DNA from: Dictyostelium discoideum
Taxonomy: Eukaryota
Direction of reading: 5' to 3'
Assembly: GCA_000004695.1 (NCBI GenBank)
Contig: CM000150.2
Coordinates: forward strand, 2,912,001 to 2,976,000
DNA: 64,000 bases
Translations under genes and position numbers: made by a program
Part shown: positions 1 to 55,161 of the stretch, in pieces
Layout of the letters: the number at the start of each line of letters is the position of its first letter
Position numbering within the stretch: position 1 is the stretch's first letter
The notes under the pieces: generated by a model
Told to the model about the DNA's origin: nothing
Database searches by the model: none
What the model saw: the letters and a program-made list of their open reading frames with translations, nothing else

Positions 1-904
1 AGAATAAATATAAAAAAAAAAAAAAAAAAGGCAAAATATATATATAAATTAAAAATACAATACAAAATTGGGTGTGTGAATTTTTTTTTTTTATTTTTTT
101 TTTTTTTTTATTATTTTTTTTTTTTTTCAATTTATTTTTTTTTTATTTTTTTACTTTTTTTTTTTTTTTATTTATTTTTTATTTTTGTTTTTTTTTTTTT
201 TTTTTGCACGAGTCAGAATCAACCAAAAAAAATAAGTTTTAAAAGAAAAATAATATTATAATTTTGTTTTGGGAATTCTTTTTTTTTTTTTTTTTTTTTA
301 CAAATTTAATTTAAAACTACACATTTTTTCTTTATTTTTTATTTTATAAAACTGAATGAATGAATTCCAATGTATGATTAATAATTATAAATATATTGAC
401 AGTATTGAGGAGAGAATTTTTTCTATTCTTGAAAAATGAAATAAATAATGGTGAGGATGTAATTAATTGTATTTTGGTTGTTGTAAATTATTATCAAAAT
501 TTAAATATTTGATATTTTTAAAAAACCTTAGGATGGGAATTCGCCTTGAGAGGAGCCATTCTCGATTGCATATGGAATAGATTTGATGTATTTGGTTTTG
601 AAACAGGCGAGGCAGAATATCTTGGAATTATAATACTTGGCATTTTTTTTTCTTTTTTTTAATTGTTATTTGTTTTTTAATGAAATAAAAATTATAAATT
701 TCCTTCATTTTATACTTGATAATATTGTGAATCAAATAACACTGACTATTTTAAAAACTGACACCGGCACTGACACCTCTTGAAAAACCAAAATTATTTT
801 TTTTTTTTAAAAAAACAAAATACACAACAAACATCTCACGATTTTTTTATAGTCTGGGACAAAATTTCATCAAATACATATGTAAAAGTCTAATAACGCA
901 TTTA

Positions 905-1106
905 AATGAGACCTTAGCAAATTGTATCACCCAATAAAAAAACATGACACCTTTGCAAAGTGTGTCATCCAGTTGGTTTTCAATGACACCTAAGCATGGA
1001 GGTTTATTGTAATTGTCTCCTAAAAATGGCGCCTTAAGAAAGTGTGTCATCCATTTTTTTTTCAATGACTCCTTAGCATAGTGGTTTATTGTAATTGTCT
1101 CCAAAA
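905..1106. repeat. Degenerate tandem repeat of about 80 bp, two to three copies, containing 'tgtgtcatcc...caatgacacctaagcatggaggtttattgtaattgtctcc'
   Basis: Direct reading: 961-1041 and 1042-1106 align almost base for base, and a weaker partial copy lies at about 905-960. It is non-coding; the ORF on 847-1104 is an artefact that starts at TTG. Confidence 0.6.
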
Positions 1107-1200
1107 CGTTAGAAGTTAGCAGTTGGTCCAGGGTTCAACTCCCTGAGGGGTCTTCCTTTTTGGGGGGGTAACAAAAGTAGATCGCATGTTCGATTCTTAA
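1107..1200 (+). other. tRNA-like fragment with D-arm-like and T-arm-like segments but no anticodon arm
   Basis: 'ttagcagttggtccagggttcaactccctgagggg' has an A-box-like 'TAGCAGTTGGT' directly followed by a perfect T-arm (stem CAGGG, loop TTCAACT, stem CCCTG). A second 'gcatgttcgattc' B-box-like motif lies at about 1183. No complete cloverleaf can be drawn. Confidence 0.3.
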
Positions 1201-7137: not shown

Positions 7138-10050
7138 TGAAATTAGGACAAAGGATATTTATTTTGATATGCTTAGTTATCAACTCTTTCTCTAATTGTA
7201 AGTCAACAATTAATTAAATATTATTCATTTTTTTATTAAAAAAAAAAAAAAGACTAAAAAAAAAAAAAAAAAAGGCAGTCTTGTGGTTTCACCAAATGGT
7301 TATTATAACATTTATCGAGAAAATAATTTTGGGAATATTTTAAATTTAAAGCCAACAGCAGAAAACAAATTACAAGATTCATATTATCCAGGTGTTTGTA
7401 GCAATGCAGGAAAAAATAAAGATGGTGTGACTAGTTTTTTAATATCCTCTTTCTCTATTTTTTTTTATAAATTACATCAACGTTATTGTTACAAAAGGTA
7501 TGTAAAATTTTATTTTAAATAGAATCATATTATGAAATATAAAATATTAACCAAATGCAATTAATTAACCAATTAGGTTCACATATGGTATTGGGAGATT
7601 TGGAATATTCTAAAATGAGTAATGTTAGAACTTTATTGAATATAGTTTGTGTTGAAGGCTCATTATTATTTTCAACACAAAGTGTTTTATATATGAGTGT
7701 CTTGGTAATGTTACCTGGTGGTAGTTTTGAATGTTTAGATTGCACAATTCGTTTTCGTGAACTACATCCAGCAAGCTCTCAGATCGATCCATTTGGTTTT
7801 TTCCCTGGTGTACTTGCTTTAGGTGGCTCGTTATCTCTTATTGGGAAGCAAAAAACTACATATTCTGCGACCAATATTGGTGGAAATATATTAGAGGTTC
7901 CAGATCTTTCAACATTAGATAGTTTCAATGGTTACAGTTTATCAATATTTAGTGAATCATTTCCTTTGGGAAAATCTTCAACCTTTTCCCATTATTTAAA
8001 TCGAATAAGTGTATTAGATTTGGTTATTCCGAAAACAGATAAAAATATAAGAGTCTTCTTTAATCCAAATTTTTCATTTTTCAACTCAGACAAAATCAGA
8101 TACCGCTTCAATTCATATCACAGGAAATACCAATGTATATAGAAAATTTTTACATCAATTCTTTTGGAAAGACTTCAAATGATCAATATAGCGATACAGA
8201 ATTGGTATTCTCACCTGATGATCCAAATTTAATTACAGAGTTTATAAATGGTAACAAAGATTTAGAAATTCATTATATATAGAGCATTCAAATAATGTTA
8301 CTATAAAAAATAGCGTTATACTTGAAACAAAAGAAACAAGATCACCATTAGTAATTTTTGGTTCAAATGTAAATATATCAGGTAATATAATATCAAGTAA
8401 TTCTGGTTCAAGTATTACAGGATTTGATAAAGATTGCTATTCACCATGCTATAATGATTCGATAAGAGTTTCAAGTAAAGTTCAACATTTATTAGTTCAT
8501 CAAATTACTCTGAGTTTTCTTTTTAGAATCAGCGAAACAGGTAGTAAACAAAGTTCAATTTATAAAATAAAAAATTCAAATTTAAGTTATCCAATTTCAG
8601 TATTATTAGAAAACAACGCATTTATATTAGATAATGTTTATGGTTTTGGTGATTTTAGTAATAATGGTATGATTAAAAGATTTGATATAATAAACTCAAC
8701 ATTAGATCCTTCTGCATCATCATCAATAAGTTTAAACAATTTTTCAAAAGCAATTTGTATTCAAAACTCATTTATGGATTTTAAATCATTTCAAAAACAA
8801 AACAATCAATTATTACACCTTACCTATACTATTTCGAAAATACAATGAATCTTATAAAAGTATCAAAAATGTATCCAAATGTAAACCATCAAATTTTAGC
8901 AGGTACAGTACTAAATATGGGTATTGAAATTATAATTATAGCACCATTATTTGGGAAAATGGATTGCATATTTGAAGATGAAAGTAGTGTTCAAACAATA
9001 CCATTTGATAAATCAAGTAATTCATGTGTTTTACCATACACATTTAAAAATGAAGGTTCATTTAATGTACGAGTTACATTATCACTAAATAACTCTGGAG
9101 ATAGTGTATTTCAAGTATATTTTCCAATGGTTACAGTATTTAATATATTCATTTTATTCAGGATGGGCAATGATTGATTCAAATATAGAAAAAGAAATAA
9201 TAATAGATGGTAATATATTTAAAAAAGGTTGTCAACAACAGGTATTAGGTAATTGTACAATATCAACAAATTCAAAGTTAATAACAGGTTTACCAAATGT
9301 GACAGAATCAGATGAACTTAATAGATTATTTTCAAGTGGTATAACATCTATCAACCCATATGAACATGTAACAATAACAATACCAATTGATAAAGAATCA
9401 AAAAAGAATCAAATCCAATTATTTTTCACACTAACCAATTGATATAGAATCTAGTCTATTATCAATATATGTAGAAAATCAACCAATATTCCTTTTAGAA
9501 CCATTACAAAGTAATTTAGATTCAACATTTAAAAACTTAACATTTCATTATGAAAATTTAAAATCTCAAGAAATAATCAACATATCTTTCACAACAAGAG
9601 GTGATATCTATTTAACTTCAATGGCGGTTTATTCATCAGCCATACCAATAATCGTTACACCAACACCAAAAACATCAAAAACTACCTCCAAAAACAAATT
9701 AAAAATCGCTTTACCGATTTGCCTTTTTGCTCTTTTGGTTGCTGTTGGAGTTTTAATATGTTTTATTTTAAGAAAAAAAAAAAACAAAAATTAACTAATA
9801 TTATGGAAGATGGAAGTGAGATGTCTTCAATTAAAATTAGTGTTTCACCTTTATCCAACTTGGGATAAAAAATGTTTTTTTTTTTTTTTTTTGATTACTA
9901 CCTTTTCAGTCCTTATTTTTTTTTGCGATCCAAAAAAAAAATTAAAAAATAAAATTCGGATTACAAATTAAAAAGGAATTTGTTTATCTTAAAGAAAAAT
10001 ATATAAAACTGTTTGGGAAAAGTAATGAATTAACACAAGAGAATTATTTT
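7138..10050 (+). pseudogene. Mosaic, frameshifted pseudogene of the receptor-like family, paralog B
   Basis: The signal-peptide exon MKLGQRIFILICLVINSFSNC at 7138-7198 and a second exon at 7269-7500 are intact. The main body is then broken into ORFs 7555-8142, 8845-9177 and 9104-9442 by frameshifts and deletions. Its 5' half resembles paralog C and 8845-9440 is near-identical to C. Its 3' part (9420-9840) is near-identical to paralog A but has lost the Thr/Pro stalk. Only a short kinase-domain tail remnant survives at 9960-10050. Confidence 0.65.
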
Positions 10051-41550: not shown

Positions 41551-42279
41551 ATTTTTAATTATCTTTTTTTTTTTTTTTTTTTTTTTTTCCTCTAATCTAA
41601 TAATCAACATCATTTTCCCATCCATTTTTATTTTTATTTTAATTTTAATTTTAATTTTAATTTTTATTTTTATTATTATTATTTATTATTCTCTTGGGAC
41701 TTTCCAATATTTTCATTAAATACAATTTTAGTAAAAAATGGATAACGCTTCCAAATATTAACAATTCCTCTTGAATTTTACCTATAAACTTTACATTTAT
41801 TTAATTATTTATTTAATAACAAAAAAAAAAAAAAGGTTAATAATTATTTTATTATTATTTTTTATTTTTTTATTTTTTTGTTTTTTAAAAAATTATATTA
41901 CCAATAACACCATTATTTTTATTTTTTTTATTATTTTTGGTTTTTTTTAAGAGGGTAGTAAGATATAAAAAATTAAGCACTAATGTGGTGAAAAGTAATT
42001 TCATGTGGAGCTGGTTGGTTGGTAATCTATTTTTTAATTTTCTAACCCAAAAAGGAAGAAAGAAAGGTATAAAAGAATGTTTTAAATTTAGAAACCAAAA
42101 AAGTTTCAATATAAATACAAAAAAAAAAAAAAAAAAAAAAGTTTTTTCATTCACTCATTCATTCATTTAAAAAATAAATAAATAAAAAAAAAAACAAATA
42201 AATAAAATTATTTTTCAACTCAAACAATTAATATTAATAATATTAATAATAAAAATAATAATAAAACTAAATAAATAAA

Positions 42280-42993
42280 ATGTCATTATGTAATAGATCA
42301 AATTTAGAAGCAATTGTTAAAGGTATTCAAACCAATAAAATATTAGAAGTATTTGATAAATATTATCATGATGAAATTGTAATGTATGAAAATGGTGATT
42401 CAACAAATCGTGTTGGTAAAGCTGCAAATCGTATAGCTGAAGAATCTTTTGTAAATAATTCAATTATTCATGAAGCAAGATTAATAAAGTTAATCGCTGA
42501 TGGTGACAATACAGCATATGAAATGTTCATGGATTTCACAAATAGTGGACACCGTATCAAAGAAAATCAATGGGCATTCCAACATTGGTCAAATGGTTTA
42601 GTCATTAAAGAAGAGTTTGTCAAAATTAAAACACCACCAACACCAGAACCAACAAATAATATAAAATCAAATTTAGAAGCAATTATTGAAGGTACTCGAG
42701 ATAATAGAATATTAGAAGTATTCGATAAATATTATCATCCAGATGTAATTATGTATGAAAAAGGTGATCCAACTAATCGTGTTGGTAAAGCTGCTAATCG
42801 TAAAGCTAAAGAATCTTTTGTAAAAAAAGGAAGAATCAATGAAGCAAAAGTATTACAATTAATAATTGATGGTAATGATACAGCATATCAAATGTATATT
42901 GATTTTACATATTGCGGAAATCGTATTCAAAAGACTCAATGGGCTGTTCAACAATGGTCAAATGGTTTAGTTATCAAGGAAGAGTTTTATTAA
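42280..42993 (+). CDS. SnoaL/NTF2-like fold protein with an internal 2x tandem duplication; divergent copy 1 of a 5-member array
   Basis: 237 aa. The two halves (about 110 aa each) are about 65% identical to each other and share NLEAI(V/I)KGIQ...ILEVFDKYYH...VIMYE(N/K)GD...NRVGKAANR...DGDNTAYEMF...QW..Q.WSNGLVIKEEF. This is consistent with SnoaL_2/DUF4440-type alpha+beta barrels. Confidence 0.55.
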   Translation: MSLCNRSNLEAIVKGIQTNKILEVFDKYYHDEIVMYENGDSTNRVGKAANRIAEESFVNNSIIHEARLIKLIADGDNTAYEMFMDFTNSGHRIKENQWAFQHWSNGLVIKEEFVKIKTPPTPEPTNNIKSNLEAIIEGTRDNRILEVFDKYYHPDVIMYEKGDPTNRVGKAANRKAKESFVKKGRINEAKVLQLIIDGNDTAYQMYIDFTYCGNRIQKTQWAVQQWSNGLVIKEEFY

Positions 42994-43283
42994 ACATTTT
43001 TTTAAAAAATGTTCACAACCCTAAAAATAAAGAATATACATATTTTTTATCAACTTATTTAAATATATTTTTAATTATTAATTTCATTGATTTTATATTT
43101 ATGATTTAATTATTTATCATTCATTTTTTGTAATTCTTTTTTATTCTGAGTAAGAACAAGAGGAATATATTTTATATAAAAGAGATTTAAAAAAAAAAAA
43201 AAAAAAATAAAACAAAAAAAAATTTTTTTATAAAAAAATCTAATAAAAATTAAAAAAAAGAATTTTATTTTTATATTTAAAGA

Positions 43284-44203
43284 ATGCCCAAAACTTCAAA
43301 TTGGTCTCCAGCTGAAGATAATTATATTAAAAGCGAATTATTAAAAAAACCTTCTTTGGTTGCCGACGATATTCTCAATAATTTAAATATTAATTTCCAA
43401 CAAAAAAGAACCAAAACTGCGTTAACCCAAAGGATAAAGAAAATTTCATCAGATTTAAAAAGTCACACAATCACCGTTCAAGTCCCTTCTGCATCTACTG
43501 CACAGACAATACCAACAATAACACCACCACAACCACAATTACCAAACCCAAATGACAATGAGGAAGAATATTCAGATCCATCAGAATCGGAGTCAGATGA
43601 AGATTCAAAATCCAACTCTAGCCTCAAAAGAAAGTCACCACTAAAGAAACAAAAACTACATGATTTGAGTAAAGCTTACCAAGGTAAACTATTATTATTA
43701 TTATTATTATTTTTAATTAATTAATTAAATTCTCTCTTTTTTTATTTATAAACAAAACTATAGAACCAACTGAACATCTTCATACTCCATTGGAATTCTT
43801 CGGCACTCAGAGATTAAAATTAAATGATCCCATCATTTTACCATTAGAAGATGGATCGTTTAAACTTGTTTTTGGTTATCCACCTTTTGATATTGAAATA
43901 ATTGAGGTTAAATATTTGGGTGATGGTAGAATTGGAATAAGATACCATGTCTTATTACCATCAAGAGAAGATCTAGAAACAATAGTTGGTTATGATTATT
44001 CATCCAGATGGTATATTAAATATGATTGTCTACCACTCAAAACCACAAGCTTTCACTTTCTTCATCACTCTGCCTCTACAAAAGAACAAGAAAAATATCA
44101 AAGTTGTAAAATCGATATTGAAAAAGATATAAAATATTTTTCAATAACAGTTACTCCAAAAGCAGTTGAGAAAATAGATTTAGATGAATGGATTGACTCC
44201 TAA
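43284..44203 (+). CDS. Small Myb/SANT-like domain protein
   Basis: Exons 43284-43683 and 43764-44203 with a phase-1 intron. The N-terminus NWSPAEDNYIKSELLKK is Myb-like, followed by an acidic Ser-rich linker and a basic KRK patch (nuclear-localisation-like). Confidence 0.5.
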
Positions 44204-44742
44204 AATAAATATAAATTAATTTAAAAAAAAAATAAAAAAAATAAAAAAAATAAAAAAAAACAATTTTTTTTTTTTTTTTGCCAAATTTTTTTTTTTTTTT
44301 TTTTTTTATTTTTTTTTCATTTCCAGCATCTCTATTTTTAAATTTTTCTTTAATGTCAAATTTGAATGTTTGAAAAATAATACTAAATAAAAAACAAAAA
44401 AAAATATTCAAGATTTAGTTCATTTATTTTATTTGATTAAAAAAAAAAAATAGAAATTAAATCTTTCAGTTTATTCTTAGTTTTTTTTTTTTTTTTTTTT
44501 TTAAATCTCTTGTGGTCCCATAAAATTTTTTTTAAAAACTTTTTTTAAGGCCTTCAGGTGTTTTTCATTTTTTTTCATTTTTTTTTTTCAAATCAAAATT
44601 TATTTATAAACACAAGAATGGTTGAGAACGACAACCAGATAACAATAAAAACTATAAAATGTAAAAAAAAATTTATTCATTCATTAAATTATCAAATTAA
44701 AAATACATATAAAGCAAACAAATAAATAAACAAATAAATAAA

Positions 44743-45453
44743 ATGTCATCAAATAATAGATCAAATTTAGAAGCAGTTATTAAAGGTATTCAAACCAATA
44801 AAATATTAGAAGTATTTGATAAATATTATCATGATGAAGTTGTAATGTACGAAAATGGTGATTCAACTAATCGTGTTGGTAAATCTGCAAATCGTAAAGC
44901 TGAAGAATCTTTTGTAAATAATGCAACTATCCATGAAGCAAAATTATTAAAAACAATCGTAGATGGTGATAATACAGCATATGAAATGTATATGGATTTC
45001 ACATATGGTGAACATCGTATTAAAAAGAATCAATGGGCATTCCAACAATGGTCAAATGGTTTAATTATTAAAGAGGAGTTTGTTGAAATTAAAACACCAA
45101 CACCAGAACCATCAACTAATATCAAATCAAATTTAGAATCAATTATTAAAGGTATTCAAGATAATAAAATATTAGAAGTATTTGATAAATTCTATCATCA
45201 AGATGTAATTATGTATGAAAAAGGTGATTCGACTAATCGTGTTGGTAAAGCTGCAAATCGTAAAGCTGAAGAATCCTTTGTTAATAATGCAACAATTCAT
45301 GAAGCAAAATTATTAAAATTACTCGTTGATGGTAATAATACAGCATATGAAATGTATATGGATTTCACATATGGCGAACATCGTATCAAAAAGAATCAAT
45401 GGGCCGTTCAACAATGGTCAAATGATTTAGTTATCAAAGAAGAATTTTATTAA
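44743..45453 (+). CDS. SnoaL/NTF2-like duplicated-domain protein, array copy 2
   Basis: 236 aa and more than 93% identical to copies 3-5. It has the same upstream promoter block, ending in 'ctataaaatgtaaaa' about 80-100 bp 5' of the ATG. Confidence 0.55.
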   Translation: MSSNNRSNLEAVIKGIQTNKILEVFDKYYHDEVVMYENGDSTNRVGKSANRKAEESFVNNATIHEAKLLKTIVDGDNTAYEMYMDFTYGEHRIKKNQWAFQQWSNGLIIKEEFVEIKTPTPEPSTNIKSNLESIIKGIQDNKILEVFDKFYHQDVIMYEKGDSTNRVGKAANRKAEESFVNNATIHEAKLLKLLVDGNNTAYEMYMDFTYGEHRIKKNQWAVQQWSNDLVIKEEFY

Positions 45454-46177
45454 ATAAACTTTTTATTTTTTAAAAATGTACAATAAATTTTAAATAAAAC
45501 AAAGAATTTACATATTTTTTAATCTATTAATTTTTTTTTTATTTATTTAATAATTCATTTTTTGTTGATAATATATAGAGTGTATTTTTTTTTTTTTTTT
45601 CCAGATTTTTAATCATTTTCCAATATTAAATTTCACAAAATCTTTAAAAATAATTTTAAAAAATTTCATCTTCTTCAAATTTTGCATTAAAAATTTCTTA
45701 TTTTCATTTATTTATTTATTGTTTTTTAAAGATACACTTTTCTTAAAAATAAAAAAACCCACAAAAATGAATGGTAAGAAATTAAATTCTAAAACAGAAT
45801 AACATTCATTTTTTATATTTTATTTCATTTTATGTATTTTTGAGTGCTCTATTTTTATTTCTACCAAATTCATATCAAAAAAAAAAAAAATTTGATACTT
45901 CTTTTAAAATAAAAAAAAAAAAAGATAGTATTTTGTTTGTCCCATAAAATTTTGAAAATTTTTTTTTTTGTTCTGGTGTTTTAAAATTTTTCTTTTTTTT
46001 TTTTCAGATTAAAATTTATTAACAAGAATACCAAACTCAAGAATACTTGAGAATGATAGCGAGTTGTTTTACATAATGATAAAAACTATAAAATGTAAAA
46101 TAATAAAAAAAAATAATCATTCATTAAAAAATAATCAACAAAAATAAATATAAAATTTAAATATAAAAACAAATATA

Positions 46178-46222
<45 letters not shown>

Positions 46223-46223
46223 A

Positions 46224-46937
46224 ATGTCATCAAATAATAAATTAATTTTAGAAGCAGTTATTAAAGGTATTCAAACCAATAAAATATTAGAAGTATTTGA
46301 TAAATATTATCATGATGAAATTGTAATGTATGAAAATGGTGATTCAACTAATCGTGTGGGTAAATCTGCAAATCGTAAAGCTGAAGAATCTTTTGTAAAT
46401 AATGCAACAATCCATGAAGCAAAATTATTAAAAACAATCATTGATGGTGATAATACAGCATACGAAATGTATATGGATTTCACATATGGCGAACATCGTA
46501 TCAAAAAGAATCAATGGGCATTCCAACAATGGTCAAATGGTTTAATTATTAAAGAAGAATTCGTTGAAATTAAAACACCACCAACACCAGAACCATCAAC
46601 TAACATCAAATCAAATTTAGAATCAATTATTAAAGGTATTCAAGATAATAAAATATTAGAAGTATTCGATAAATTTTACCATCAAGATGTAATTATGTAT
46701 GAAAAAGGTGATTCGACTAATCGTGTTGGTAAATCTGCAAATCGTAAAGCTGAAGAATCCTTTGTTAATAATGCAATAATTCATGAAGCAAAATTATTAA
46801 AATTACTCGTTGATGGTAATAATACAGCATATGAAATGTATATGGATTTCACATATGGCGAACATCGTATCAAAAAGAATCAATGGGCCGTTCAACAATG
46901 GTCAAATGATTTAGTTATCAAAGAAGAATTTTATTAA
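46224..46937 (+). CDS. SnoaL/NTF2-like duplicated-domain protein, array copy 3
   Basis: 237 aa and near-identical to copies 2, 4 and 5. Confidence 0.55.
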   Translation: MSSNNKLILEAVIKGIQTNKILEVFDKYYHDEIVMYENGDSTNRVGKSANRKAEESFVNNATIHEAKLLKTIIDGDNTAYEMYMDFTYGEHRIKKNQWAFQQWSNGLIIKEEFVEIKTPPTPEPSTNIKSNLESIIKGIQDNKILEVFDKFYHQDVIMYEKGDSTNRVGKSANRKAEESFVNNAIIHEAKLLKLLVDGNNTAYEMYMDFTYGEHRIKKNQWAVQQWSNDLVIKEEFY

Positions 46938-47477
46938 ATAAAATTTCTCTTTTTTAAAAATGTACAATAAATTTTAAATAAAACAAAGAATATACATATT
47001 TTTTAATCTATTAATTGGTTTTTTATTTTATTTCTGATATTTTTTTAATTTTAATTTTTATTTTTTTTAGATTTTTAATCATTTTCTAAAATAATATTTC
47101 ATCTTTATAAAAATTAATCTGAACTTCTCCAAATTTTATTACTGCACAATAAATTTCTTATTTTCATTTATTTATTTTTTTGTTTTTATAAAAAAAAGAT
47201 AAATGAGTAAAATAATTTAAATAATTAAATTAAATAAATGAATTAAATAAATTTTTTTTTTTTTTTTTTCATAATTTTAATTTTCAAATCAAAAAATAAA
47301 AAGGTAAATTTATTAAGTCTTGAATAATTTTATATGTTTTTTTTTTAAAATTATATTTATTCAAACACTCAAATTTTACATTAAAAAAAACAAATAAAAA
47401 ATATCCAATTTAATAAATTTTTATTACATTTAAAAATAAAAAATAAATTGTAATATAATTAAATTTTAAAACTAAAA

Positions 47478-47512
<35 letters not shown>

Positions 47513-47763
47513 TGAAAATGTTTTTTTTAATTTCCATCCCATAAATTTTTTTTAAAAAAACTTGTTTTGTTCTGGTGTTTTCATTTTTTTTTTTTTTCTG
47601 AATAAAATTTATTAATAGGCCCAGAATACTTGAGAATGGTAGTAAGTTATTTAAGATAACAATAAAAACTATAAAATGTAAAAAAAAAAAAAAATAATAA
47701 TCATTCATTAAAATAAAATCAACGATAATCAAAAATAAATAAATAAATAAATTAATAAATAAA

Positions 47764-48474
47764 ATGTCATCAAATAACAAATTAAATTTAGAAGCAGTTA
47801 TTAAAGGTATTCAAACCAATAAAATATTAGAAGTATTTGATAAATATTATCATGATGAAGTTGTAATGTACGAAAATGGTGATTCAACTAATCGTGTTGG
47901 TAAATCTGCAAATCGTAAAGCTGAAGAATCCTTTGTAAATAATGCAACAATTCATGAAGCAAAATTATTAAAAACAATCGTAGATGGTGATAATACAGCA
48001 TATGAAATGTATATGGATTTCACATATGGCGAACATCGTATTAAAAAGAGTCAATGGGCATTCCAACAATGGTCAAATGGTTTAATTATTAAAGAGGAGT
48101 TTGTTGAAATTAAAACACCAACACCAGAACCATCAACTAACATCAAATCAAATTTAGAATCAATTATTAAAGGTATTCAAGATAATAAAATATTAGAAGT
48201 ATTTGATAAATATTACCATCAAGATATAATTATGTATGAAAAAGGTGATTCGACTAATCGTGTTGGTAAATCTGCAAATCGTAAAGCTGAAGAATCTTTT
48301 GTTAATAATGCAACAATTCATGAAGCAAAACTATTAAAAGTACTTGTAGATGGTAATAATACAGCATATGAAATGTATATGGATTTCACATATGGCGAAC
48401 ATCGTATCAAAAAGAATCAATGGGCCGTTCAACAATGGTCAAATGATTTAGTTATCAAAGAAGAATTTTATTAA
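47764..48474 (+). CDS. SnoaL/NTF2-like duplicated-domain protein, array copy 4
   Basis: 236 aa and near-identical to copies 2, 3 and 5. Confidence 0.55.
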   Translation: MSSNNKLNLEAVIKGIQTNKILEVFDKYYHDEVVMYENGDSTNRVGKSANRKAEESFVNNATIHEAKLLKTIVDGDNTAYEMYMDFTYGEHRIKKSQWAFQQWSNGLIIKEEFVEIKTPTPEPSTNIKSNLESIIKGIQDNKILEVFDKYYHQDIIMYEKGDSTNRVGKSANRKAEESFVNNATIHEAKLLKVLVDGNNTAYEMYMDFTYGEHRIKKNQWAVQQWSNDLVIKEEFY

Positions 48475-49357
48475 ATAAAATTTTTATTTTTTAAAAATGT
48501 ACAATAAAATTTAAATAAAAGAATTTTACATACTTGTTTATCTATTAATTTTTTTTTAAAACTATGTTGTATTTTTTTATTTATTTAAATATTCATTTTT
48601 TGTTGATAACATATAGAGTGTATTTTTTTTTTAAAGATTTTTAATCATTTTCCAATATTAAATTTCATATTGATAAAATTGTTCTGAACTTCTTCAAAAT
48701 TTCAATTATATATTTCTTATTTTATTTTATTGTTTTTTAAAAAAAAGATAAATGAGAGGGCAGAATAAAATAATTAAAAAGTTATTACCTTTTTAATTTT
48801 AGAACCAAAAAAAAAAAATCTTTATTTTTTTATTTTTTTTTTTTTTTTTACATAAAAAAAAAAAATATCAATTTAATCAAATAAAATTTTTTTTTCCTTG
48901 CTCGTTGTTTTTAAAAATAAAAAAAAAATTACAAAAATGATTAAATACTAAAACAGAAAAATATTCATTTATTGTTATAATTTATTTCATTTTGTGTATT
49001 TTTTGAGTGCTCTATTTTTATCAAAAACACCTCCAAAAAAAAAAAAATATTTTTCGTGTCCCATAAAATTTTTTTAAAATTTTTTTTTGTTCTGGTGTTT
49101 TAATATTTTTCTTTTTTTTTTTTCGGATTAAAATTTATTAACAAGAATACCAAACCCAAGAATACTTGAGAATGATAGCGAGTTGTTTTACATAATGATA
49201 AAAACTATAAAATGTAAAATAAAAAATAAAAATAATCATTCATTAAAAAAATATCAACAATAACCAAAAATAAATATAAAATTCTTTCTTTTTTTTTAAA
49301 AACAAATAAATTAAAAATAAAAAAATAAAAAAACAAATAAATAAATTAATAAATAAA

Positions 49358-50071
49358 ATGTCATCAAATAATAAATTAAATTTAGAAGCAGTTATTAAAG
49401 GTATTCAAACCAATAAAATATTAGAAGTATTTGATAAATATTATCATGATGAAGTTGTAATGTACGAAAATGGTGATTCAACTAATCGTGTTGGTAAATC
49501 TGCAAATCGTAAAGCTGAAGAATCTTTTGTAAATAATGCAACAATCCATGAAGCAAAATTATTAAAAACAATCGTAGATGGTGATAATACAGCATACGAA
49601 ATGTATATGGATTTCACATATGGCGAACATCGTATCAAAAAGAATCAATGGGCATTCCAACAATGGTCAAATGGTTTAATTATTAAAGAAGAATTCGTTG
49701 AAATTAAAACACCACCAACACCAGAACCATCAACTAACATCAAATCAAATTTAGAATCAATTATTAAAGGTATTCAAGATAATAAAATATTAGAAGTATT
49801 TGATAAATTCTATCATCAAGATGTAATTATGTATGAAAAAGGTGATTCGACTAATCGTGTTGGTAAATCTGCAAATCGTAAAGCTGAAGAATCTTTTGTT
49901 AATAATGCAACTATTCATGAAGCAAAACTATTAAAAGTACTTGTAGATGGTAATAATACAGCATATGAAATGTATATGGATTTCACATATGGCGAACATC
50001 GTATCAAAAAGAATCAATGGGCCGTTCAACAATGGTCAAATGATTTAGTTATCAAAGAAGAATTTTATTAA
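49358..50071 (+). CDS. SnoaL/NTF2-like duplicated-domain protein, array copy 5
   Basis: 237 aa and near-identical to copies 2-4. Confidence 0.55.
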   Translation: MSSNNKLNLEAVIKGIQTNKILEVFDKYYHDEVVMYENGDSTNRVGKSANRKAEESFVNNATIHEAKLLKTIVDGDNTAYEMYMDFTYGEHRIKKNQWAFQQWSNGLIIKEEFVEIKTPPTPEPSTNIKSNLESIIKGIQDNKILEVFDKFYHQDVIMYEKGDSTNRVGKSANRKAEESFVNNATIHEAKLLKVLVDGNNTAYEMYMDFTYGEHRIKKNQWAVQQWSNDLVIKEEFY

Positions 50072-50330
50072 ATACAATAAAATTTTTATTTTTTAAAAAT
50101 GTACAATAAAATTTAAATTTAACTTTTTTTTTTTTAAATATTGATTAATCATAGTTTATCCATTTGAGGAAATAAGCAATATTTAATAGTTTTATTTATG
50201 AATTTTAATTTTAAAAAGAAATTTAACACACATATTTTTTTTTTTTTTTGTTTTTATTTTTAAAAATTGGTCAGTGTTAGGCAATATTTAATATGGTTTA
50301 TATTAATCAAAGATCAGATGCAGACCGGAA

Positions 50331-50332
50331 CT

Positions 50333-50345
<13 letters not shown>
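50331..50345. repeat. Target-site duplication, left copy: cagaccggaactgtt
   Basis: Identical 15-mer at 55038-55052. It directly abuts the element's poly(A) tail. Confidence 0.8.
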
Positions 50346-50374
<29 letters not shown>

Positions 50375-50492
50375 TAAAAGCGGTGTATTGTTATATTTTA
50401 TTACATTTTTAAATTTTTAGATTTTTAAATTTTTAAATTTTTATATTGTTATATGTTGATATTTTTGGTTATATTATGATTACTACTACTTG

Positions 50493-50519
<27 letters not shown>

Positions 50520-50523
<4 letters not shown>

Positions 50524-53500
50524 TCTAATGGAATTGGGTTTGGAGTGTTCGGGTTATGCCATGATGTGTTGAAGTTGATTATTAATTGGTCTCTGTTATT
50601 TAATTTGTATATTGTTTCATTCCTTTCGATCTTCTTTATTAAAATGAATTTCTCTATTTTAATTAAGTTGGTTAGTTCTTTTTCAATTAATGTTGGATCA
50701 AATGAGGGTGGAGATTTAGATTCGTCTTGATTGAATAGTTTGTGACAAATTATTCTCCATAGTTGATGTATAATTATGCCGATTAAATTTGGGTAGATTC
50801 TTTCTTTTTTATTTGTTTTGCTAATATCTAGTGAATTGAGATCCCAATTTCTGATCTTGAAGAATGAGAGATTGTTGAATGTTGAAATTATTATGTTTTC
50901 TATTTCTTTTACTTGCATACAGTCTATAAAAAGGTGAGTGTATGGGTCACGGATTATATTGTTACAGATTTTGCATGGTACGTTACGTTCATAGTTGATT
51001 CCAGGAAGTGACCTTGAGAAAAATCTGAATAGTGTATTTCTACCTTTTTGATGTGATATGTGGTTGATATGTTGGAAGATGGATGGTATGTTGATGTTAT
51101 TTATTGAAATTAGATTTTTTTGTCCATCTGTTTTTCTTATTGATTTGTATTTGTGAGTGATTAACATGTTATAGATTTCTTTAAGTTGAAGTGGCTTTTT
51201 GTTTTGACCTTTGATACAATCAGGTAGTGATTTTAGTTTATTGTGTTGTGGTGAAAAGTTGTTTCTAAAATCTTTCCATCTGTCTACCATCTCTCTTAAT
51301 CCAATTGATATATATTTGCTGTTGCTGATTTGTTCCATATACCATTCTTGTAGTATGTTGCATGCTTTTATCTTGATAATGTGTAATAATCTATTCATGT
51401 TCCAAACTTTGAATGCTATTTGTCTGATACCTAAGTCCCACATCTTAATTCCACCTTCTTTCCAATCACCATATGCTCTATCCATTGTCATTAATGTTCT
51501 ATATTTATGTTCTTCTGTGTATGTATTTTTAATTGCGGAGAAGAGGAACCATTTAATGATATTGTTTAGTTCAGTAATGTGTGATTCATTTAGTGAGTCT
51601 AGATATTGATGGTAGGATAATCTCGATAGCGCATATGTTTTGACAATTGTCATCTTTGCTCTTATTGTAGTTGCTTGACTTTTCCAATTGTTTAAGCTAT
51701 CTTTGATTGAGTTGATGATTGATGTGATTTTTGAATTGAGGCCCACTTTCGTGAAATTGAGACCCAAGTATCTTTCTGGAGCTTCACTAATCTTAAATGG
51801 GAGGTTTGGTGGTATATTACCAATGCATATCATAACAGTTTTCTCTTGATTAAGTTTTGAAGATGTACCTAGACAGTAGTTGTTGATTTTATCCAATACT
51901 AATTTTAATTCTTCTGCTGAGTTGTTGAAAGTTGACATATCATCTGCGAATGCTGTTAGCTTGATTCTTTTCTGGTCTGATCATTTAAATCCTTTAATTT
52001 CGTTTTCTTTAAGTATATCAATTAGTAGTGCTTCCATTACAAGTGCAAATATTGTTGGTGATAATGGATCTCCTTGTTTTGTGCCTCTGTTAACTGTAAT
52101 GTGTCCCACCAGGAAGTCATTTATCTTGATCTTATTCGTTGTTTCTTTTAATAGATTCATTATTAATTCTACTATCGTTTTTGGTATGCCAATGTGGCTC
52201 AATGTTCTTCTGATACTTTTGTGGCTAATTGAGTCGAAAGCTTTGTTGAAATCGAAGAATGTGATTAACGTAGTACTGTTTCTTGATTTGTTTGCTCTTT
52301 CGATTACCTCCTTCATTATTTGAATATTATCTTGGATGTAACGATTTGGAACAAACCCATTTTGAAATTTGTTTATTATTTTCTTTGTAACTGCAAGTAA
52401 ACGGTTGTTGATGATCTTACTTAATAGTTTGTAGTCCGTATTGAGTAGAGTAATTGGTCTTCTATTAGCTATTTGTAGTTCATCTCCTTTCTTGAATAGT
52501 GTTGTGATAAATCCTTCTTTGAATTTTGGATTGATTTCTTTTTGATTAGTTAATGTATCATTAAATACTTTTGCTAAGATTGTTGAAAGTGATGCAGAGT
52601 GGTTTCTATATAATGCAGCATTGATTCCATCTAGTCCTGGAGATTTGTGTGGATTAGAATTTTTAATTGCATTATTGACTTCTTTTGGTGTGATTGCACT
52701 ATCTAATGATAGTCTGGAAATGTATTGTTTGTCCACTATCCATTTATCCAATAGTTCCTTGTGTTTACTTTCATTATCTGGTTTTTCATCGTATTGTTCT
52801 TGATAGAATTCTAAGAAGCATTTGGCTATTTCAACTTTTTCTGATACAATTGTTCCATCTTTGTTTTTAATTTGGAATATGGATCTGTCCTTTTTCCTTT
52901 TCTTTAGTTTACTTGTTAGATATCTACTTGGAGTTTCTTGGTTTAAGTGAAGTTTCAATTTGGTTTCCCATTGTTTATTTGCTTCTTCTTCTTTCAATAA
53001 CTCTTCCATTTCGTCTTCTAGTTGCTTTCTTTGACCAGGGTATAAATCTTCTCTTTCAATTAATCTATGTAATCTACTCTTCTTTTTGTTTTTTTCCTTT
53101 TTTATCAAGTTCTGTTGCTTTTTGAGATGGTGCCTGATTGTATAATTCTTAAAGTGGATCCAGTCATCTAGTGTGTTGATGTATTGTTTGTTGTTTTCTA
53201 TGATTTGCGAGATTTCTTCATGAATTGTTGGATCAGCCAATGTTTCTTTGCATAATGTCCACGGGAGTTTTTCAATTTTGATGTTGTTGATGTTGATATC
53301 GTTTGCGCTATTGTTATTCATTTTTAAATCTATTGAAATAGGTGTGTGGTCAGATTTGTTGTAAATATCTTCATGCACCCTTAGCGGGTTTGAACCCACC
53401 ATTGTTGGTTTACAATAAATTCTGTCCAATCTGCTATTAGATCTTGAAAAAGTTGCGATATTGTTGTTTGCACCTATATCTTTCAGGTTGCTTTCTTCAA

Positions 53501-53972
53501 TTATACTTCTGATACCAATACCATAGTGTGAATTGTTGTTGTGGTCTGCATTAAAGTCACCTGCAATGATGTCATGTTTGATTTTTTGATCTTTAATGAG
53601 ATTCTTTGCTGCTATAATGAATGCATTTCTTCTAGGTATTGATGCTGGGGCATAAATTAAAAGGATGTTGATGTTGATATACGAATTGAACTTAACTGAT
53701 AATATTCTACCTTCTGTATCTTTGAAATTTACTGTTAGATAGCCAGTGCTTAAATTTCTATTCTCTATTGATACACCAGTGCCTTTACCGTTTCCATGAT
53801 CTATCCTTTCATAGTTGAACATTGATTTATAATGATTGAATGTTGAACCGTTTGTTTCTGTAAGTAATGTGATTTGGGGACCTATTCTCTTGATCGTTTC
53901 TTCAGCTTTTTTATTTGAGAGAGGGCTTGAACTACCTCTGCAATTCCATAATAAAATTTTTAATTTTTCCAT
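50520..53972 (-). pseudogene. TRE3 ORF2 (EN-RT) interrupted by a single in-frame TGA just upstream of the FADD motif
   Basis: Minus-strand reading gives ...KGFK-TGA-SDQKRIKLTAFADDMSTFN. The stop is at about 51978-51980 and the same frame continues on both sides. Confidence 0.6.
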
Positions 53973-54179
53973 CCTCTTGATAGGGTTGGGTTACCATTTG
54001 GTGGTTGACCACCACTTGGTTTTGTTTGTGTAGTAATATTGTTTGTTGTATTTGAGTTGTTTAATTTATTTGTGATGATTGTTTTGTTGTTGTTGTTGAG
54101 ATTTTTGTCGTTGTTATTATTGCTGTTGTTATTATTATTGTTGTTGTTGTTGGAGTTATTGGAGTTATTGGAGTTATTG

Positions 54180-54259
<80 letters not shown>

Positions 54260-54907
54260 TTGTATTATATTTGTATTATTGATAGCTTGATTGGTTGTTG
54301 TTTGTTTTTTGTTTTTCTTTTTAGCTTCCTCCCTATCTTCTCTACTAATAGATTCACAGAAGTATACTTTAATTTGATTGTTGTTGTTTTTATATGACTG
54401 AATTTGATTATTGATTATATTTGTATTTGTTGATTTGTTGAATAGTATTATTGCTGAATATCTGTGCACATCATTCATAATTTTAACGTTGCATTCATCA
54501 ACTTCCACTGCTTCTACTCCCATGTTTGTTTGTACATCTTCTTTTGTTATTGCTTTTGTTATATTTTTTGTGAAGGTATAGAAGTGGAGGTAGTGGTGAT
54601 TAGGAAAGTATGGGATGAATCTTTGAATTCTATATATTCCATCCTCATCCTTTATTTGAAATGTGCAAAATGAATCGTGTAGATGTTTCAAATTTTCTTT
54701 TAGAATTCTACCCAACACTGTTATACCTTTTGATTTTCTAATTATTGTTTTATCTTTGAGGAGTGTATTGTCAATGAATTTGAGAGTATTACTATTTAAT
54801 TCTGCTGTATTTGGGTAGTATAGTCTGATTTTATATGTTGAGTTATTTAGTAATTCTTCATTGAATACAAATTTGTTACTGATGAGATTGAAAAAGTTAT
54901 TGTTCAT
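53960..54907 (-). CDS. TRE3 ORF1 (Gag-like, nucleic-acid-binding)
   Basis: 315 aa, overlapping ORF2 by about 13 nt. It has a basic poly-N/basic C-terminus. Confidence 0.6.
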
Positions 54908-54938
54908 TTTTTTTTTTTTTTTTTTTTTTTATTTTTTT

Positions 54939-54982
<44 letters not shown>

Positions 54983-55037
54983 TATTTTATTACGTGATTG
55001 TTAATTATTTGTTGATAGTTTGTTGATTGATTGTGCT

Positions 55038-55052
55038 CAGACCGGAACTGTT
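55038..55052. repeat. Target-site duplication, right copy: cagaccggaactgtt
   Basis: Identical to 50331-50345. It lies about 20 bp downstream (minus sense) of the tRNA terminator. Confidence 0.8.
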
Positions 55053-55070
55053 GACATATGGTTCCTAAGT

Positions 55071-55076
55071 AAAAAA
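55071..55076 (-). terminator. Pol III terminator (T6 on the minus strand) immediately 3' of tRNA-Ser
   Basis: Plus-strand 'aaaaaa' at 55071-55076 is TTTTTT in the tRNA sense, 4 nt after the discriminator base. Confidence 0.7.
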
Positions 55077-55079
55077 GAT

Positions 55080-55161
55080 CGACATCGGCAGGGTTCGAAC
55101 CTGCGCCTCCTAGGAGATTTGATTTCAAGTCAAACGCGTTAGACCACTTCGCTACGATGTC
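55080..55161 (-). tRNA. tRNA-Ser (anticodon UGA), 82 nt with a long variable arm
   Basis: Minus strand: GACATCG-TA-GCG-AAGTGGTCTAA-CGC-G-TTTGA-CTTGAAA-TCAAA-TCTCCTAGGAGGC-GCAGG-TTCGAAC-CCTGC-CGATGTC-G. It has A and B boxes, a 7/7 acceptor stem, and an extra arm typical of Ser. Confidence 0.85.

Follow-up and report, generated by a model that had tools for sequence, protein, structure and literature searches.

A full-length retrotransposon, very probably of the TRE3 type, behind a tRNA-Ser(UGA) gene of Dictyostelium discoideum

What occupies the 3' side of the tRNA-Ser(UGA) gene in the stretch of Dictyostelium discoideum DNA considered here, how recently did it arrive there, and can it still move by its own means? 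The stretch, referred to as the window throughout, comprises 64,000 nucleotides (nt) of assembly GCA_000004695.1 (contig CM000150.2, positions 2,912,001 to 2,976,000 of the forward strand) and matches gene models of AX4 chromosome 1 at 100% (DDB_G0270886 and DDB_G0269542). An earlier note on this DNA, made from its letters and open reading frames (ORFs), had proposed a TRE3-type element downstream of tRNA-Ser(UGA). We find that structure, ORF2 motifs, side and orientation all fit this proposal, and that the element is very probably a full-length copy of a TRE3-type, tRNA-gene-targeted retrotransposon without long terminal repeats (LTRs), whose second reading frame is interrupted by a nonsense codon. 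Both the element, already catalogued, and the kind of site that it occupies in the reference genome are known.

Junctions, position and reading frames

The retrotransposon spans 4,702 bp including its tail (50336..55037, minus strand), in agreement with the length of about 4.7 kb given in the earlier note, and was placed in the TRE3 family, most likely as TRE3-C, from its sequence and published consensus lengths (PMC5006619 Table 1). It lies between two copies of a 15-bp target-site duplication found by repeat search, AACAGTTCCGGTCTG on the element strand, of which the proximal (5') one occupies 55038..55052 and the distal (3') one 50321..50335 (both minus strand). Re-inspection showed these flanking 15-mers to be identical, so that the intact duplication of the earlier note stands; its start coordinate for the element, 50331, does not, as it falls inside the distal copy, which starts at 50321. 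Read on the plus strand, the 15-mer CAGACCGGAACTGTT occurs at exactly two sites in the window even with two mismatches permitted, and not once in 100 shuffles; it is the sole long-range direct repeat that flanks the element in the repeat search, and the direct-repeat search of the region revealed no LTRs at the element. The poly(A) tail of 36 nt (50336..50371, minus strand; 31 nt in a second assembly) abuts the distal duplication, as had been claimed, with its 36 A directly before position 50335. The terminal TT of the plus-strand repeat (AA on the element strand) may itself be tail, and the length of the duplication is therefore best given as 13-15 bp.

The targeted gene, transcribed by RNA polymerase III (Pol III), is tRNA-Ser(UGA) (55080..55161, minus strand; ARAGORN), one of only two tRNA genes that ARAGORN finds in the window. 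Its internal B box, GGTTCGAACCC, was read from the sequence at 55101->55091 (minus strand), and a run of six T, the Pol III terminator, lies at 55071..55076 (minus strand), 3 nt past the end of the tRNA with atc between. The duplication follows the end of the tRNA gene after 27 nt and the first base of the element after 42 nt; measured from the terminator the corresponding distances are 18 and 33 nt, for which the previously given value of about 25 nt between terminator and 5' end can serve as an approximation only. Element and tRNA gene have the same orientation, both on the minus strand, with the element on the 3' side of the gene. The same locus structure is present in an independent long-read assembly (L001, GCA_054883475.1), probably the AX2-214 genome of a 2025 preprint; within the element the two assemblies differ in homopolymer lengths only, the internal A runs accounting for 25 bp of length variation between these two versions of the same copy.

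From its 5' end the element starts with an A-rich untranslated region (UTR) of 130 nt (54908..55037; this and all following features on the minus strand), whose two long A runs of 36 and 24 nt vary in length between assemblies. ORF1 (53960..54907) encodes 315 amino acids with a long Asn-rich tract, has no Pfam match and is 48-50% identical to ORF1 of a related D. discoideum element (P0007, at locus L011). ORF2 (50520..53972) comprises 1,150 codons with one in-frame stop and starts 13 nt upstream of the ORF1 stop in the -1 frame (54907 versus 53972, an offset of 935 nt, which is 2 modulo 3). It specifies an apurinic/apyrimidinic-type endonuclease (APE) domain at amino acids 8-212 (53337..53951; Pfam Exo_endo_phos, E=4.5e-9), with the motifs TETN, GDFN and SDH kept in all aligned relatives, and a reverse transcriptase (RT) domain at amino acids 497-739 (51756..52484; Pfam RVT_1, E=1.3e-27, C-terminal part 3.2e-5), which is divided by the stop and whose catalytic FADD motif, 11 codons downstream of that stop, is likewise kept in all aligned relatives. 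Close to the C-terminus follows a CCHC zinc knuckle, C-X2-C-X9-H-X4-C, at amino acids 1000-1018 (50919..50975); Pfam reports no zinc-finger family in this part of ORF2, and the motif was recognized by alignment, in which it is present in 8 of 8 relatives. ORF2 has no Pfam match to RNase H either. The 3' UTR of about 150 nt (50372..50519) consists of an A run right after the ORF2 stop and some 120 nt ending in ...CACCGCTTTTAGGT; a D. citrinum relative likewise ends in CACCGC...AGGT(A)n.

The NCBI models P0001, P0002, P0004 and P0005 annotate ORF2 from Met51 (MFNYE...) and omit the first 50 endonuclease residues. These residues are open in frame in the window copy and in read-assembled copies, the Met51 start probably being an artefact that the ORF1/ORF2 overlap introduced into the annotation.

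These features agree with what is known of TRE3 elements. In the literature they have two ORFs, with ORF2 in the -1 frame and encoding APE, RT and a zinc finger (ZF) in this order, and a poly(A) tail, and they are found 40-150 bp downstream of tRNA genes and co-oriented with them, again with a -1 frameshift (PMC5911963). The window element has the poly(A) tail, the duplication, two ORFs overlapping in the -1 frame and the APE-RT-CCHC order, has no LTRs, and sits co-oriented on the 3' side of its tRNA gene at 27-42 nt. Three relatives are likewise downstream of tRNA genes and co-oriented. One (L006), a copy with 99.5% identity, is truncated on its 5' side at about element position 2280, is flanked by a 14-16 bp duplication and lies about 50 nt past an intron-containing tRNA gene; ARAGORN missed this gene at default settings and found it with introns permitted, its anticodon call of Thr CGU is doubtful, and on visual inspection the gene looks like a class II Ser(CGA). 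The second (L007), from D. citrinum and 65% identical in ORF2, lies 71 nt past tRNA-Ile(AAU) with a 16-bp duplication, TTTGTTAATTGTGTGT, and the third (L011), a 50-58% identical D. discoideum relative with its RT deleted, lies less than 95 nt downstream of tRNA-Phe(GAA).

The empty site and the age of the insertion

On the plus strand the empty site reads ...aagatcagatg-CAGACCGGAACTGTT-gacatatggttcc..., with a right flank that begins gacatatgg. In the string given by the earlier note this right flank had been set on the left, and the 'ttt' at its other end is element tail. In a divergent D. discoideum isolate (L008) the ortholog of the actin-like gene next to the tRNA shows 95% identity, and tRNA-Ser is followed there directly by 465 bp of intergenic DNA (9449-9913) that reaches to the first SnoaL-like gene and contains no element; aligned to the reconstructed empty site of the window, this locus passes through the insertion point, the spacer being diverged. 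Short-read (Logan) contigs with the actin-like gene end inside the tRNA gene at window position 55135, short of the insertion site.

The window copy is also very similar to its sister copies. Over 3,704 bp it differs at 8 positions from an intact, read-assembled copy (L005) with 1,149 amino acids of ORF2, 4 substitutions in about 2.3 kb are private to it, one of them the nonsense change, and its divergence from sister copies amounts to 0.2-0.5%. Taken together, the perfect duplication, the pure A tail, the low divergence and the element-free site in the other isolate support the view, already taken in the earlier note, that the insertion is young.

The SnoaL-like genes that follow on the far side of the element form a tandem array at about 42100-50100 of the window, with some six units of about 1.45 kb, each encoding a 237-amino-acid protein of two SnoaL-like halves. 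The units are 85-97% identical to one another; the divergent isolate has four of them, whereas D. citrinum (L009) lacks them at the orthologous locus.

Subfamily, coding capacity and competing explanations

Which of the TRE3 subfamilies does the element belong to? According to Spaller et al. 2016 (PMC5006619 Table 1), TRE3-A has a consensus of 5,229 bp and 67 copies (13 full length) at 14-228 bp 3' of tRNA genes, TRE3-B one of 5,279 bp and 43 copies (9 full length) at 34-188 bp, and TRE3-C one of 4,734 bp and 29 copies (2 full length, in AX4) at 14-305 bp, while TRE3-D is known from a partial sequence of 1,559 bp and 11 copies (0 full length) at 49-285 bp. Since only the 4,734-bp consensus fits the 4,702 bp measured here, A and B being about 500 bp longer and D having no full-length copy, the element is likely to be TRE3-C, an assignment made by elimination on length and copy number rather than by comparison with a named consensus. 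It is like Dd_TRE3-C (Szafranski 1999, Gloeckner 2001, Spaller 2016) in length, low copy number and scarcity of full-length copies, in its position downstream of a tRNA gene within 14-305 bp, in its two ORFs, APE-RT-ZF order and poly(A), and in an RT about equidistant from TRE5 and TRE3-A/B. We found no feature in conflict with Dd_TRE3-C, from which the window copy differs by the nonsense codon in its RT. With Dd_TRE3-A (Tdd-3) and Dd_TRE3-B it shares the architecture, the side and orientation relative to tRNA genes and the -1 frame of ORF2, but not the greater length.

The relatives recovered from databases are in line with a low copy number. All best matches of ORF2 are from Dictyostelium, namely D. 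discoideum copies at 99%, D. citrinum at 65% and D. dimigraforme and D. cf. discoideum at 58-60%. The cluster formed by ORF2 at 90% contains one AX4 model of 1,099 amino acids, the split window copy and several 5'-truncated fragments; its AX4 gene models are few and mostly 5'-truncated, and because the AX4 members are mostly C-terminal fragments they show the truncation pattern typical of elements like the long interspersed nuclear elements (LINEs). To the abundant D. discoideum cluster P0008, which includes GenBank AAD43057 'pol' and has an ORF2 of 1,275 amino acids, the window ORF2 is only 32-35% identical overall and 45% in the RT domain. Its RT is 44% identical to that of a TRE5-A-like element (at L011) and 44-49% identical to those of TRE3-A/B-like elements, so that pairwise RT identities alone do not separate the two groups; this agrees with the ambiguous grouping published for the TRE3-C RT (PMC5006619).

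That the element is of the TRE3 type but belongs to another subfamily, be it TRE3-A, -B, -D or an unnamed lineage, has a small probability. In its favour, the TRE3-like ORF2 sequences of D. discoideum fall into at least four lineages (the P0008 type, the second L010 type, the window type and the P0007 type), and the mapping of letters to lineages is our deduction. The published lengths, however, leave TRE3-C alone compatible with 4,702 bp, TRE3-D having no full-length copy (PMC5006619), and an element of the P0008 type measures 5,239 bp. This latter element is the second in a head-to-tail tandem of two TRE3-like elements (L010, 1-8774), whose ORF2s are only 40% identical. A further composite locus was seen at L011 (3700-4830 and 4838-7460), where tRNA-Phe(GAA) is occupied on both sides: upstream lies a TRE5-A-like element with at least five tandem modules of about 200 bp facing the tRNA, and the RT-less element downstream is possibly TRE3-D.

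Is the copy still able to move on its own? The earlier note had implied an intact element. ORF2 codon 664, within the RT domain, is an in-frame TGA (51981..51983, minus strand; plus-strand base 51982). Two other DNA copies read TTA at this codon, the AX4 model P0001 shows Leu, and the residue is Leu or Ile throughout the relatives; the TGA is a private nonsense mutation of the window copy. Because of it the copy should be unable to make a complete ORF2 protein and hence its own RT; judged by its sequence it would be non-autonomous and mobile only if intact sister copies provide the protein, and such copies exist. A sequencing error or readthrough, either of which would leave the copy autonomous, is suggested by the fact that a single TTA->TGA change interrupts an otherwise open frame of 1,150 codons and that the remainder is 99.8% identical to an intact ORF2. 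We consider this very improbable: the second assembly, built from long and short reads, carries the identical TGA; the AX4 annotators divided ORF2 at the same place into DDB_G0270886 (663 amino acids) and DDB_G0269542 (437 amino acids), both 100% identical to the window; and the residue is Leu or Ile in all relatives, with no sign of recoding.

Still closer to negligible is the probability that an element of another kind (TRE5, NLTR or an unrelated LINE) adjoins the tRNA gene by chance. Such an origin might be read into the RT identity to the TRE5-A-like element, which is about that to the TRE3-A/B-like ones, and into the 13-bp ORF1/ORF2 overlap that is also found in NLTR-A of D. purpureum (PMC5911963). 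Yet TRE5 and NLTR insert upstream of tRNA genes, TRE5 in the opposite orientation (PMC5911963), whereas the window element and three relatives are downstream and co-oriented; NLTR has an RNase H domain instead of the zinc finger (PMC5911963), whereas the window element has kept its CCHC motif and has no RNase H match; and with two tRNA genes in 64 kb, chance adjacency within 42 nt is unlikely. Dd_TRE5-A in particular resembles the element in belonging to the L1-like superfamily, in having two ORFs and the APE-RT-ZF order and in targeting tRNA genes, but it inserts about 50 bp upstream in opposite orientation and has modular A/B/C UTRs, neither of which applies here. Skipper-2, an LTR retrotransposon, inserts in the same region, in D. 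discoideum at 8-23 bp downstream of tRNA genes, but differs by its LTRs, integrase and chromodomain; the window element lacks all three and possesses a poly(A) tail and an endonuclease of the APE type instead. We also rejected an LTR element, given the lack of LTRs, a repeat arising by chance, given the 0 of 100 shuffles, and an artefact of assembly, given the identical structure in the second assembly.

Some points nevertheless weigh against a young, full-length TRE3-C copy as we describe it. The letter C was reached from length and copy number and by elimination, and the 5' end of the element was set on a single full-length copy. In the range of '~100 bp downstream' that is commonly quoted, the insertion takes a place at the near edge. 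Insertion and TGA are common to the AX4-like and AX2-like assemblies, but these probably derive from the same wild isolate and are then not independent with regard to age. Finally, targeting through TFIIIC, to which we turn below, is taken from the literature and has been tested experimentally only for TRE5-A.

Insertion and choice of site

How would the element have come to lie where it is? Its junctions and the established biology of LINEs suggest that it entered the site just behind tRNA-Ser(UGA) by target-primed reverse transcription. The element's endonuclease would have nicked the plus strand of the window between ...ACTGTT and GACAT..., the freed 3' TT would have paired with the poly(A) of the element RNA and primed cDNA synthesis, and a second nick on the other strand, 15 nt away, would have given rise to the duplication. 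The site would have been chosen via Pol III factors (TFIIIC) at the B box of the tRNA gene, a step for which we draw on the literature only.

A second B box, external to the tRNA gene, may have a part in this choice. In the divergent isolate (L008, 9479-9489) the external B box GGTTCGATTCC lies 30 nt past tRNA-Ser, and D. citrinum has GGTTCGATTCA at the same offset (L009, 9730-9740). At the identical offset in the window (55049->55039, minus strand) stands a degenerate version, AGTTCCGGTCT, with 6 of 11 positions matching, and the target-site duplication spans it entirely, together with 3 and 1 flanking bases. The orthologous tRNA-Ser of D. citrinum has been hit independently: it is followed by about 690 bp of a TRE3-like LINE fragment (L009, 9741-10430), truncated at its 5' end and closed by poly(A), which is weakly similar, 25% identical at the amino acid level to the C-terminus of a P0008-type ORF2 and whose 9-bp duplication, GTTCGATTC, is the external B box.

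The staggered nicks of TRE3-type integration may thus bracket the position of the external B box itself, a tentative idea that we hold to be rather unlikely. If such bracketing were general, it would point either to TFIIIC on the internal B box acting as a fixed ruler or to the external B box DNA being recognized directly. The insertions in the window and in D. citrinum start 38-42 nt past the internal B box and other copies at about 62 and 84 nt; across the copies (about 38, 42, 62 and 84 nt) one constant spacing from the internal B box is not supported.

The other tRNA gene of the window, tRNA-Trp(CCA) (1067-1153), is followed after about 33 nt by a good external B box (GTTCGATTC), and neither of its sides carries a TRE within the window. 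Upstream of it (window 900-1200) are repeated partial copies that resemble the 5' half of the tRNA (GACACCT(T/A)AGCA...TGTCATCCA).

As an instance of tRNA-gene-targeted retrotransposition the locus is clear, but it carries little weight beyond annotation. What is gained are the exact boundaries of the insertion and its empty site, a full-length copy that by its sequence would be non-autonomous, the absence of the insertion from a divergent isolate, and a second, independent hit of the same tRNA-Ser in D. citrinum. If the nicks do bracket the external B box, TRE3 insertion would duplicate external B boxes or separate them, and the coincidence of both duplications with this box may be taken as a small clue to site choice by TRE3 elements.

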